64,000 nucleotides of DNA from Anolis carolinensis (lineage: Eukaryota), in contig NC_085841.1 of assembly GCF_035594765.1 (NCBI RefSeq), positions 172,159,574-172,223,573 on the forward strand, read 5' to 3'. This document shows positions 39,176 to 44,467 of the stretch, piece by piece. A program made the translations under genes and the position numbers. Every line of letters starts with the position of its first letter. The first letter of the stretch is position 1. The notes under the pieces are model-generated. The model did not search any database and was not told the DNA's origin. It saw only the letters and a list, made by a program, of their open reading frames with translations.

Positions 39176-39644
39176 GTCTACTGAGTATATGGAGGATCAC
39201 CTTTCTCGGCACAGCAGCTGGCTAGTAAGAGTTACATTTTAAAGTTGTTTCCTTGGAGCAAGATCATCAATCAATCAATTTATTAATGCTCCGACCAATG
39301 GTCATATGCATTTACAGAAACAACATCAAACAAACGTCTATACAAAACACTGTAAAATTCAACACTTAAAAGTAGGATGCAAGCAGGATAAAACAGAACA
39401 TGCAAACTATACATTGTGTGGTGCAGCAGCACAAGTGCAACATGTGCTGGGAACTGCACAATTACCGGTAAAATGCCAATGTATAAAATCAGTCATTTAA
39501 AAAACATATGTAAAAATATCAACCAAGCATCTGTAGAAACTCTGTAAACTTCCACAGTTAAAACCACGGTGCCTGGAGTATAAAACAGAGCTTGCAAAAT
39601 ATAACCAGTAAAAAGCCAATATAAAATATCAGTCATGTTAAAAA

Positions 39645-42600
39645 CTAGATAAAAGCATCTCCGGCGCAGTCGACTGCAATGTCCGCAATCAGTCTTGCTC
39701 TGATTTTGTTTGCTGCCAAGGTAAAGAGAGAGACCTTATATGTGATTGTGGAGTTGGTGTCAGATAAAAGGTAGAAGATCTTTTCTGCAACCGTATTCAA
39801 TCGTAGGTACCATAGAATGGGCCCTAAGAATTTATTTCTTGGTGCAGAGTATAGAGTGCAGGCAAACAAATAGTGGGGCAGGTTCTCAATTTCTGAGGCC
39901 CCGCATACGCATATCTGGCTAGGCAAAGGAGTGCCCGAGTATCTACCATCCAGCACTGCTGAGGGCATGCTTTGGAATCGTAGAGCTGTAAAAGCTTGCC
40001 TGAGGTTAGGGAATGTGAGGTTGGTTAGATACATAGCCCTTTCATGGTCGAGTTTGTATAATTTGTACCATGTTGAGAATTTGGAGCTGTTAATAGCCTG
40101 CCTGTCCATTTGAATACCTTGGTTATAAATGTATTCATGCAACTTCTCTCTTGAACTCAGGGTTGAAGGCTCATGAGACAGGGTAGGGTATATGTTCAGC
40201 AATTTCTGATGTTTTAAGCTCCAAAGTTTGCATTCAGATAGATGTTCAAAGCATAGCTTTGGGAAAACCCTAGCTGGGGAATCCTCTACGATTCTCCAAT
40301 AGTTGTATAGGGAGAAGTGAATGCGAGATCTTATGGAGGGTAAACCAACCTCTGCTCTGACCAAGGCTGCTGGAGTGCCAGGTGGGAGTCTCAGCAGTTT
40401 CTTAAGGAATGTATTCTGGATGGCCTCCAATTTTGGTATCTGTGAATCGTCCCATCCCCAGACTGGGGCGCCGTACAGAATCTGGGCAATAACTTTGCTC
40501 TGGAATATTTTCAGAGCTGGGGCAACCAGATGGCCCCCTGCTGTGTTATAAAATCTGAGGATTCCTCCAATAGATTTTAGTGCCACTTCTCTGCTATGTT
40601 CTATATGGGGCTTCCATGATAGAGTGTCTGAAAAATATACACCCAGATACTTAAATTCCCTGCATTGTTCAATCTGATGGTCACCAATGGACCATCTGAA
40701 CTGTGAGTGTCTTTTTCCGAACACCATCACCTTTGTTTTATTATAATTGATGTTCAGCTTTTCTTTGGAGCAGTATATGCCCAGTTTAGTAAGTAGCCTT
40801 CTTAGACCTATTTGGGCGAATGAGACTAACACCATATCATCTGCATATAAAAGAGCAGAAATCTTCTTTGAACCGACTGAGGGTGGGAAGAATTCTGGAC
40901 CTGAAAGTGCTGTTATTATATCATTCAAGTATAAATTAAAGAGTGTGGGTGCCAGCAGACAGCCTTGTTTTACTCCTTTACTGGTGTGAATTGCATCAGT
41001 TAGGGAGCCAGAGGTGCCAACTCTTATTCTAGCTGTGGTGTCAGAGTATAGTGCCTTAATAAGAAACAACAGGCGTTTATCTATATTAGTGTTGGTCAAT
41101 TTTTGCCACAACAAGTTTCTGTCAATTGAATCGAATGCTGCAGCTAAATCAACAAAGGCTACAAATAGGTGTTTAGTTGGTCCTGCGATTGCTTGTTGGG
41201 CTAGGAAGTACAGAGTCAAACATTGATCAATTGTGCTCTGACCTTTTCTAAAACCAGCCTGTTCAGGGTGAATAATGTGGTTAGCAGATTCCCAATCCTC
41301 TAATTTGTTTAATAGGTGTTTGCTATATAACTTAGAATCAATATCTAAGAGGCTGATGGGTCGGTAATTGTTGGGGTCTTGTCACCCTTCTTGTAAATAG
41401 GAACAACTATGCTCTGTTTCCAGCCCTCTGGAATTAAACCTGAGTTGTTGATATGTGTAAACACTTTAGCTAATATTGGGGCCCACCATTCTGGGAAGTT
41501 TTTAAATATTTCTGGGGGCATCATGTTTTCCCCTGGAGCCTTACCCAAGGCTAAAGCTGCAATCAGCTTCTTTATCTCAGAGATTGTCACTGGCAGCCAG
41601 AGTGGCAAACAGGACATTTCAAAGATAGTTGGCGGATGATTCTCTGAGGAGTTAGCTCCATAGAGTCCACTAAAGTGAGTGAACCATTGCTCGGATGAAA
41701 TATGCCCAAGTACTACCGGTCTGACCATATGCATTCCTCTAGAGGTTATATCCCAGAACAGTTTCTCATTCTTTTGCGTCACTGCTAAGGCTAGTTGTTT
41801 CCACTGTTCTTTGGCATATATGTCTTTTTTTTGCTTTATAAGAGCCTTATAAGATACCCTCATTGAAGCTAGGATAACAGCTGTATTGTTGTCTTTATTT
41901 CTAAGGGCCTGTCTAGAGTAGTCCATCAGTGCCTTCCTGGCGCCTCTACATTCTGAGTCAAACCATCTATTGGTTCCCACTTTGTTGGGGTTAGATTGTT
42001 TTTTACAGACCAATGTAGGTCTGAGATTCTGGATGATGGATTGGTAGGCAAGTAATATATCTGAGTTGGAGTCTAGGATGTATTGGTGAAGATTTTTAAA
42101 AGGAGTACTCTCGATTATGTGGTGAAGGGAGTTATCTAAATTGACAGACCACCTTATTTTCTGCTCTCCCATGTGAATTCCATTTAGATTTTGACAGGGC
42201 CGTGATGGTGGGTACAATTCAAAGTCAAATATCAGTGACAGAGGGAAATGGTCACTTTCTACCCTATTTTCGACTGCAAAGCTTTGTATGTCTGGGAGCA
42301 GGTTGACAGAGGCTGCCATGTAATCTATTGTGCTAGCTCCTCTGTTAGTGACATAGGTGTAGGCACCCTGCGTTCTATCATATTGGGTTCCATTAAGACA
42401 CTGCAAATTGTGGAGGGAAAGAATCTCTAAAAAGCTCCTACCTGATTTGTTGCTGTTTGAGTCTTGTGAAACCCTGGCAGCAGGTGTAACCTGGAAGACT
42501 TGTCCAAAATTTGTGCCCTCCACCTGTTTCAATTCTGCCCCAATTCTGGCATTGAAGTCTCCACACAGAAGAACCTTTGTGGAGGGGTATTGATTTTCTA

Positions 42601-43006
42601 ATAGCGTAAGGGTTTCGGATAGGCTAGACCAAACATTGTTAGGGCCTCAATTTTTTGATAGTCTAGGTGGAAAATAAACATTTATACAAATTAAACCACC
42701 AAAATGCTTGCACTTAACGAGAAGGGCCTGTATGCATTGAGGGTGGGTACTAACCAAGGGTTGGATGTCGACTTGCAGTTCTACTGAGATAAGTGTAGTG
42801 AGGCCACCACTGCCTCGACCTTTAGAACTTGTTTTTACAGCTGGAACTGAGAATGATCTAAAACCATAAAGAGAAGGTAAGTTAGCTTCTTCAGCCCATG
42901 TCTCTTGCAGACAAATTATTCTAAATGTTTGCAAATACATTGCACAGTCTGCATCATGGAATTTATTTGACCACCCCATAATGTTCCAGGATAACAAATG
43001 TAGTTG
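39645..43006 (-). pseudogene. LINE ORF2 (APE endonuclease - reverse transcriptase - zinc knuckle), ~1120 codons, with one in-frame TGA (42647-42649) and one frameshift (~41377)
   Basis: APE motifs SWN, CLQETW, GDFNAR, STIDY, SDHFP; RT motifs NYRPISLL, EQAGFR, FVDLAAAFDS, GVKQGCLLAP, YADD, FKYLG; track ORFs 42647-42997, 41345-42532 and 39645-41219. Confidence 0.93.
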
Positions 43007-44306
43007 TCAAGATGTTGTAAGCAAATCTGGATCACCACCAATACCCAGGGTCATAGTCTGCACTGGGACTTTTAGGTTAGAGGACAGTTCTTGTGGAGGG
43101 GGTGTGTTGTTACCCCTCCTAGGTTCCAAAAGTTGTATTGGGGATGTGGTTGCGATCTCTTCCTCATTCATCGCTAGTAGGTCGACTACAGGGCCTCCCT
43201 CCAGGTTCCTCCTAACATGAGAGGGCTCATCAATAGGCACTAAGTTTATCAACGGTTCAGCCAAGTCCTTGGTGGTAAACAGCTTGTTCTTAAGGTGGTC
43301 CAACTTAAATGTAATGTCACATTGTTCATTGCAGGATGAAATAGTTGGGTCCTTAGACTGTTTCTGTGTTGAGATACTGGAAATTTTGGCTGGGCTGGAT
43401 TGCAGTCTGTTATCGCAAGAAGTCTCCCTGGGAGTGGTCAAACATCTGGCATGCAAAGGAGTTATCAGAGGGGTGATGTCCAAGTCTCGAAAAACCCGTG
43501 TTGGACTTATTTGGAAGTTGTGCAGGAAAATTCTCATCTTCATCAGCATAGTTGGTATTGTGGGTTGCTGGAATGTTAGAAGGATTCTTTTGCCTGCAGC
43601 TACTTGGGGAAGCCACTCCACTTTAAGTATATCAATGCTGTGGGGTTGTATATGTAAAAGTTGACTCAAAGATGTTTTGATGGCCCTTTGTGACCCCCAT
43701 CTTCCCTTGTTTACTCTGATGTTAGCAATTTGCAACATTGTCTGTCTTGCTTGTAGGATCCTGTTGCAACTTTCCTTTTGCAACTCCTTAGTAGGGACAG
43801 CTGAGTGGCCCCTATCCACCTTTCTGGGCTCTGGGCTCTGGGCAGACCACTGCGCTGGGCTTTCTTTTAAAGCTGTATTTTTTTGAACTAAAGAATCAAA
43901 TGAAAGCTTAAGGAGCTCAAGTTGTTTTGTAATTTTCTTTAAATGTTCAAAAATAGATACAACAGTGTCGACAGTCAGAAGACATTGTTTTGTCACAAAG
44001 TCAGGTGGGCATGTTTGTTGTTGTTTAGCATATTGTTGTATCTCTGTAATTGACAAATTCTCCCCAGACATATCTGCCCCAGATGAATCCAAGGACACCC
44101 CTTCATGATAACCAGCCAAGTTGCAAGAACATATGTTTCCATTATCCAAAGCTGAAAAGCTATTATCAGTAAGCAGAGTTTTTAACACTGGCGTACTCAC
44201 GGTTTCCTCCCCAAATAATTCATCTATTTTGAGTTGTTTAGAGGGCTTGTGAGGTCTGGCTGTCTCAGGGCTTGTCCTGGTCCGTTTTTTTTTTTTTGCT
44301 TCCCAT
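43007..44306 (-). pseudogene. LINE ORF1, ~432 aa (basic N-terminus, coiled coil, putative RRM-like region); one extra A in an A13 run
   Basis: ATG GGA AGC at 44306 is followed by A13; with A12 it reads MGSKKKKRTRTSPE in frame with track ORF 43007-44338; heptad-like IFEHLKKITKQLELLKLSFDSL. Confidence 0.8.
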
Positions 44307-44467
44307 TGCAAAGAAGATAAGAATAGAAGAATGTTCAAAACAATGAACTGTTGTGCCCTGGTAGCCTAATAACAGCAGAGATATCGGAGCTCCTTCAAAC
44401 GCTTCCTATCACGCCGGCGCCATCTTGTTTCTCCTGGAGCAAGATCACTCTCGCATACAGACACTCA

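Follow-up and report, generated by a model that had tools for sequence, protein, structure and literature searches.

How the endonuclease and reverse transcriptase of a LINE are translated from the second open reading frame of a bicistronic RNA is described as an open question in the cited passages of PMC3894237, and a locus of Anolis carolinensis bears on it. Within the 64,000-nucleotide stretch of DNA analysed here, referred to as the window, lies a minus-strand LINE in which ORF1 and ORF2 occupy one reading frame and are divided by a single TGA. The original prediction, made from this stretch alone, held that the two frames are joined by programmed stop-codon readthrough rather than expressed by L1-style reinitiation. 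Our comparison of copies, sister families and distant relatives supports that view through the conserved stop, its context and the missing ATG. We estimate a probability of roughly 80% that programmed readthrough in this lineage yields the endonuclease/reverse transcriptase as part of an ORF1p-ORF2p fusion of ~1550 residues, a reading that rests on patterns of sequence conservation.

Structure and state of the element in the window

Copy comparison and target-site duplications delimit a full-length but inactive non-LTR retrotransposon of ~5.16 kb on the minus strand (39267..44426). Its 5' end is supported by five close copies with unrelated flanks that begin at the identical position, and contigs from sequencing runs stop short at 44423-44427. 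The element is bounded by a 13-bp target-site duplication identified by sequence match (5' copy, exact, 44435..44447; 3' copy, 39254..39266), and its 3' end, which follows a 3' UTR of ~360 bases, carries AATAAA and then a short tetranucleotide-repeat tail (39267..39284). The duplication, the lack of LTRs, the simple-repeat tail and the dispersed copies are traits of LINEs, and the placement of an APE endonuclease N-terminal to the reverse transcriptase in ORF2 (Pfam PF03372/PF14529 and PF00078) identifies the element as an APE-type LINE.

The window copy itself is dead, a point absent from the original prediction, because its ORF1 ATG is frameshifted, an extra stop interrupts ORF2 at 42649-42647, and four bases are missing near 41378 in comparison with copy L079. 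The extra stop is private to this copy, the only one of 11 close-copy rows to have it, and the frameshift arises from a run of 13 A residues (44297-44285) that displaces the ATG by one base relative to the ORF1 frame. The length of this run is different in each of the five close copies that hold it, and the ATG is in frame with the junction stop in just one of those five. Separately, the element begins with AAGATGGCG (window 44418-44426; likewise in L073 and L068), which has a four-codon upstream ORF inside, is common to families whose ORF2s differ greatly, and resembles what we take to be the YY1 site of the L1 5' end. A UniRef protein of Anolis carolinensis matches one sister family at 97%.

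The ORF1–ORF2 junction and the conservation of its stop

The ORF1 frame extends over 452 codons from stop to stop (44365-43010, minus strand), with ORF1 proper comprising ~432 codons from an ATG at 44306 (43010..44306) as judged by ORF reading and homolog comparison. It ends at a single in-frame TGA (43007..43009), and the endonuclease frame follows directly after TGA-CAA-CTA with no spacer, just as had been proposed; the predicted fusion size of ~1550 residues also fits, at 432 + 1 + 1121 codons. The CAA CTA at +4 to +9 (43001..43006) is an exact match to the stop-CAR-YYA signal as defined in the cited passages of PMC3542737 and PMC4132726. This hexanucleotide class recurs in 9 of the 21 groups defined below; at the base composition of the elements, CARYYA is expected by chance after any given stop at ~0.3%. 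Nine codons (42980..43006), delimited by subfamily comparison, separate the stop from the first in-frame ATG of ORF2, which is codon 10 (42977..42979); they contain the W-N of endonuclease motif I as codons 7-8 (42988-42983), so that the ATG falls 3' of the motif, three codons past its Trp.

The stop is a family trait and not a copy defect. A DNA search returned 30 loci, and the junction could be read in 29; in the close subfamily A all 15 rows have TGA CAA CTA, and subfamily B, ~73% identical in the endonuclease, has mostly TGA CAA TTA. The full junction set comprised 124 distinct regions from DNA and protein searches, for which the best 150 protein candidates were scored. In eight of these regions the junction is deleted or truncated, and the 116 that could be aligned have TGA in 110, TAA in 3, TGG in 2 and TGC in 1, leaving no room for a consensus sense codon with a copy-specific stop. 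Clustering at 85% nucleotide identity produced 24 groups, or 21 after three consisting of damaged members of others were dropped. Although endonuclease identity across these 21 falls to 30%, TGA stands in the ORF2 frame of 20 of them, 7 to 116 codons ahead of the motif-I Trp, one singleton group reads TAA TGT, and no group has a sense codon at the stop position. Several of the small groups consist of decayed copies only, with short upstream frames.

The bases that follow the stop are also conserved among divergent groups, and in forms that are known readthrough motifs, which is the check on relatives that the original prediction called for. The codon after the stop is CAA, CAG, CUA, CUC, CUG or AAG. 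Position +4 is C in 17 of 21 groups (23% by chance), +7 to +9 reads YYA in 14 (7% by chance), exact CARYYA is found in nine and CUAG in three, and 17 have either YYA or CUAG; since the groups share descent, binomial P values on such counts overstate their significance. Ten CAR-type representatives, picked for CA after the stop, have invariant C at +4 and A at +5, only A or G at +6 and only C or T at +8, with C or T at +7 in nine and A at +9 in eight, and from +10 onward the sequence varies freely. Their second codon after the stop encodes Leu, Ser or Pro while these nucleotides stay fixed, which argues that the constraint lies on the RNA rather than on the residue. In the endonuclease tree the CAR-type contexts fall on two separate branches, beside families of CUAG and CUC/CUG type.

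Three groups depart from this pattern with A at +4 (AAG CTA twice, AGG CCA once), a poor base for readthrough. All three keep RYYA at +6 to +9; in two of them an in-frame AUG precedes motif I, and in the third the AUG is absent from two of three copies. Reinitiation may be used in this branch. A further subfamily (L191, L193, L203, L211, L213, L214, L222) spread with one extra base directly behind the TGA and a stop codon inside the endonuclease; it is likely a non-autonomous branch.

The endonuclease N-terminus lies upstream of the first AUG

By Pfam and alignment, ORF2 (39645..43006, minus strand) encodes an APE endonuclease, a reverse transcriptase with its YADD at 40847-40836, and a C-terminal Cys/His knuckle from 39911. 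The Pfam endonuclease match begins at residue 5 after the stop with E 5e-4, below the cut-off; the second endonuclease part is matched as well, and RVT_1 is matched at E 2e-36. The best solved-structure match of the ORF2 profile is human L1 ORF2p (E 8e-83), and the lineage profile aligns the motif I Asn with L1 Asn14 and a later Gln-Glu with L1 Glu43, which are active-site residues according to the cited passages of PMC8565326.

The claim that AUG initiation would cut off a conserved endonuclease residue has to be divided. The window's subfamilies indeed have no in-frame or overlapping ATG before the W-N, and an in-frame AUG precedes motif I in only 4 of the 21 groups; for the window's subfamily alone, however, the argument is weak, the ATG being only three codons after the Trp. 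It is strong in those sister families where the first ATG comes only after the catalytic Glu. In L073, L075, L097, L100, L199 and L221 the first AUG is located beyond the catalytic Gln-Glu, and unbroken ORF2s of 1155-1157 codons are present in at least 13 L073-type and at least 10 L075-type copies among those listed. These two families are young, and the combination of intact young families with a first AUG past the Gln-Glu excludes AUG initiation for the active families of the lineage. Within the window's own relatives, subfamilies A and B differ between the stop and the first ATG by six synonymous and 0-1 non-synonymous changes, which indicates that the codons upstream of the first AUG are translated and under purifying selection. 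A practical consequence is that ORF2 of such elements is mis-annotated when begun at its first internal Met and loses the endonuclease N-terminus; squamate database proteins P0001-P0004 begin within or after the endonuclease.

Predicted architecture of the ORF1 product

Intact copies (L061, L068, L073, L075, L092) have an ORF1 of ~450-660 codons, counted from its Met, in frame with ORF2. No Pfam family matched ORF1, hence no esterase was identified in it. The homologous ORF1 of L073, 53% identical to that of the window, was modelled with a mean pLDDT of 51 and domain blocks at 65-89, and shows a long helix at residues 102-155 followed by a beta-alpha-beta-beta-alpha-beta domain. A fold search with this model returned RRM domains as its top matches, none of which reached E 0.001. 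ORF1p is therefore predicted, on the basis of this model, to consist of a coiled coil and an RRM-like domain.

The ORF1 N-terminus also carries a PIP-box-like motif (44213..44236, minus strand), by a definition of the PIP box that we assume to be the standard one, and the motif is aligned in all six ORF1s that reach the N-terminus (window, L061, L068, L073, L075, L092). The ORF2 position aligned with what we take to be the L1 PIP box lacks its Gln. We speculate that a fusion could lend the putative PCNA-binding motif of ORF1 to the ORF2 enzyme. In the L064/L068 group a second PIP-like motif occurs in an AUG-preceded N-terminal extension of ORF2. A search for natural fusions, in the form of longer proteins carrying ORF1, found none among 8000 scored, and is a weak search.

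Relatives, controls and clade placement

A metagenome scan yielded 80 loci, of which 27 include the endonuclease N-terminus and two of these 27 have no upstream stop. These distant relatives stand at 25-29% identity. Fifteen of the 27 show a long in-frame stretch before a single stop (63-461 codons, some ended by a contig edge); they were picked after the lengths had been seen, and the motif-I anchor is imprecise in about four. Their stops are TAG in 13, TAA in one and TGA in one, with G at +4 in 14 of the 15 and CAG ATA in the remaining one. Of the 25 metagenome loci that do have an upstream stop, ten show no such layout: they belong to other clades, have an ORF1 overlapping in another frame, or are decayed. 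An altered genetic code for TAG was considered and rejected, as ORF2 runs for 1018-1431 codons without TAG or TAA in 14 of the 15. Among viral contigs, 31 pattern matches included no relative.

As a control, none of 30 other endonuclease loci of the same genome has a 100-codon in-frame stretch before the nearest stop, their ORF1s ending in frames other than that of ORF2. These loci came from a Pfam search and represent about three LINE lineages, with 26 CR1-like (all of a single family), 2 L2-like, 1 RTE-like and 1 cellular, the LINE labels being our assumption from motifs.

In a reverse transcriptase tree the lizard set is monophyletic (100/99), falls on the L1/RTE side (100/99) and is not nested in rows that we presume, from their motifs, to be RTE-like or L1-like. 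The TAG-G set is not sister to it in the free tree, and a single clade is not rejected (p-AU 0.20). The lineage is a probable member of the RTEX clade, with which it shares two ORFs, a substantial ORF1, APE and RT domains, a position on the RTE/L1 side and a short-repeat tail, and from which, known RTEX being compared by descriptions only, it differs in having no esterase in ORF1 (cited passages of PMC3905857, PMC11203168, PMC5753468). The esterase occurs in some RTEX members only and is no requirement for the clade, and the substantial ORF1 that sets RTEX apart from RTE in the cited part of PMC3905857 is present here at 430-660 codons in intact copies.

A readthrough model and its alternatives

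In the model that we favour, most ribosomes would terminate at the UGA and give ORF1p as the main product, while a minority, 1-15% by analogy, would insert an amino acid by way of a near-cognate tRNA and continue. This leak would fix a high ratio of ORF1p to fusion in the style of gammaretroviral Gag/Gag-Pol, with a signal that is purely local (+4 to +9), and the fusion would join ORF1p in assembling on the RNA that encodes it; what we infer here are the leak itself, how often it occurs and this joint assembly. The cited passages of PMC4132726 report ~15% readthrough for UGA-CARYYA in the OPRL1 context in HEK-293T cells, and in the same cells up to 31% for UGA-CUAG as against 1.5% for UGA-CUA alone. 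The three contexts seen in the lizard lineage and its relatives are the three viral classes of readthrough signal, UAG-G among them, as classified in the cited part of PMC3542737. Local folding of the 100 nt after the stop gave z below -2 in 2 of 28 cases, similar to control windows, and the TAG-G loci likewise lack a 3' structure, where viruses need one. The lack of a 3' structure suits the type I and CUAG signals and leaves a gap for the TAG-G loci. A broader version, with the odds evenly balanced, is that a deep and widespread RTEX-like lineage, from lizards to distant eukaryote hosts, always made a Gag-Pol-style fusion while swapping CARYYA, UGA-CUAG and UAG-G; the fusion would then tether the enzyme to oligomers of ORF1p on its own RNA and lend it the PIP-like motif.

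The main rival, which we consider unlikely, is termination followed by reinitiation at a non-AUG codon just past the stop, giving free ORF2p from an in-frame layout that is merely inherited history. L1 ORF2 is indeed initiated in an unconventional, AUG-independent manner in the cited passages of PMC5009743 and PMC5972666, near-cognate CUG, UUG and GUG codons come after the stop and ahead of motif I in those groups for which this stretch was read codon by codon, and a CUG directly follows the UGA in L073/L094. In four groups an AUG precedes motif I, and the AUG and PIP-like extension of L068/L064 fit separate initiation there. Reinitiation nevertheless needs neither conservation of frame over ORF1s of 430-660 codons, nor UGA, nor CARYYA or CUAG, and it would favour efficient termination over a leaky context; the groups share no common initiator codon after the stop, and there is no downstream structure of the kind that SART1 requires (cited passages of PMC3894237). 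Dead or non-autonomous single-ORF elements sharing an old nonsense mutation are a highly improbable source of the pattern: the window copy is broken and one subfamily (cluster 2) multiplied while carrying a frameshift immediately behind the stop, but no group lacks the stop, and it stands in young families in which both ORFs are intact (L061, L068, L073, L075).

A-to-I editing could turn UGA or UAG into the Trp codon UGG by one edit, UAG is a favoured ADAR triplet, which bears on the TAG-G relatives, and copies L054 and L192 do have TGG. LINE enzymes show cis preference, copying their own RNA, so an edited RNA that made enzyme would itself be copied and flood the genome with TGG, whereas only 2 of 116 junctions have it, both decayed. 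Local folding found no duplex around the stop, and contigs of four sequencing runs that cover it show no change at 43007-43009 among the 40 rows listed; 19 runs contain the stretch, and that they are RNA is a guess. We regard editing as very improbable, and rank slightly below it a spliced or internally initiated subgenomic RNA that expresses ORF2 alone. TAG-G fits the splice acceptor consensus YAG/G, and CTAG resembles an acceptor too; no pyrimidine tract precedes the TAG, however (C+T 46% against a 45% background), the window context has no AG, the contigs of the four runs contain no splice joint over the stop, and a subgenomic RNA would not demand an in-frame ORF1. Decoding of the UGA as selenocysteine is the least credible of all. 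It would be compatible with a vertebrate transcript that has its UGA in frame and ~360 bases of 3' UTR; an Rfam search at E up to 1 gave no match to SECIS or to any other family of relevance in eight full or near-full loci, a set that excludes the window UTR, the stop position is a variable linker with no active site, and relatives use UAG.

Relation to known systems

Among LTR retrotransposons, readthrough is used for the env of SIRE1. Tca2 and VdLTRE5 are likewise LTR retrotransposons in which one stop splits gag and pol, in these cases with no CARYYA (cited passages of PMC3441728). The closest precedent is Paramecium Group 3 of non-LTR retrotransposons, for which ORF1 and ORF2 in the same frame in a consensus led to a suggestion of readthrough (Guerin et al. 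2017, PMC5405496). Those elements form a separate ciliate clade, and the suggestion is a single sentence with no motif analysis in the cited part of that paper, whereas the elements here are from a vertebrate and carry canonical readthrough motifs in a lineage of 21 groups. Gammaretroviral gag-pol also joins an RNA-binding structural ORF to a polymerase through one in-frame stop, and its UAG-G, which acts with a pseudoknot, is shared by the metagenome relatives (cited part of PMC3542737). The lizard LINE, in contrast, has no LTRs, protease, envelope or detected 3' structure, uses UGA with type I/II contexts, and would yield a fusion that is not cleaved by a protease of its own. The tobamovirus stop-CAR-YYA and the vertebrate and alphavirus UGA-CUA(G) signals are matched exactly, in 9 and, as CUAG, 3 of the 21 groups; natural CARYYA cases are generally UAG and mostly from plant viruses in the cited passages of PMC3542737 and PMC4132726, while here UGA-CARYYA occurs in a vertebrate transposon and both motif types within one lineage.

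L1 and SART1 resemble the lizard lineage in having a bicistronic RNA, low ORF2 output and an ORF1p of coiled-coil/RRM type, but in L1 the two ORFs are set apart by a spacer of 63 nt and in SART1 they meet in a UAAUG stop-start, and each of these elements gives free ORF2p (cited passages of PMC3894237, PMC5972666, PMC10275272), and the lizard elements have no spacer and mostly no AUG. For LINE ORF2 the cited passages of reviews name reinitiation, a possible IRES and 2A peptides, and not readthrough (PMC3894237, PMC5972666, PMC5009743, PMC10275272). A search of the full-text literature found no report of readthrough in RTEX or vertebrate LINEs, while subscription papers, Repbase Reports or Dfam may mention the in-frame stop. 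The junction is best explained, from its sequence features, as a known recoding mechanism in an element class where it had at most been suggested before. Readthrough would be a third route of ORF2 translation, here in a vertebrate LINE lineage whose young families are intact and whose junctions follow textbook motifs. If so, ORF1p and ORF2p can act as one polypeptide, which would give cis preference a simple structural basis, and the lineage would supply about 20 naturally occurring contexts for readthrough.

Other junction types and mosaic elements

Two further junction types were encountered. In a metagenome family (L108, L109, L180) ORF1 overlaps ORF2 in another frame at a T-rich run, and ORF2 has its own AUG, which is a different expression route within the same broad group. 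In the CR1-like control family (L252-L280, L286; for example the G000:C4:227527559 region), ORF1 ends right after T TTA AAC, a heptamer that lies in the ORF1 frame in 26 loci and that we take to be a classic -1 frameshift slippery sequence. One fold found no strong structure downstream of it. The CR1-like ORF2, which is in the -1 frame, stays open over the heptamer and has no Met ahead of motif I, and this arrangement suggests that an ORF1-ORF2 fusion may be formed there by frameshifting.

The lizard elements are also mosaic. The ORF1s of the window and L073, despite their 53% identity, are attached to endonucleases from different branches that share 39% identity, and ORF1 C-termini together with junctions have been swapped among ORF2 lineages, both between the window element and L073 and in L076 versus L064/L068.
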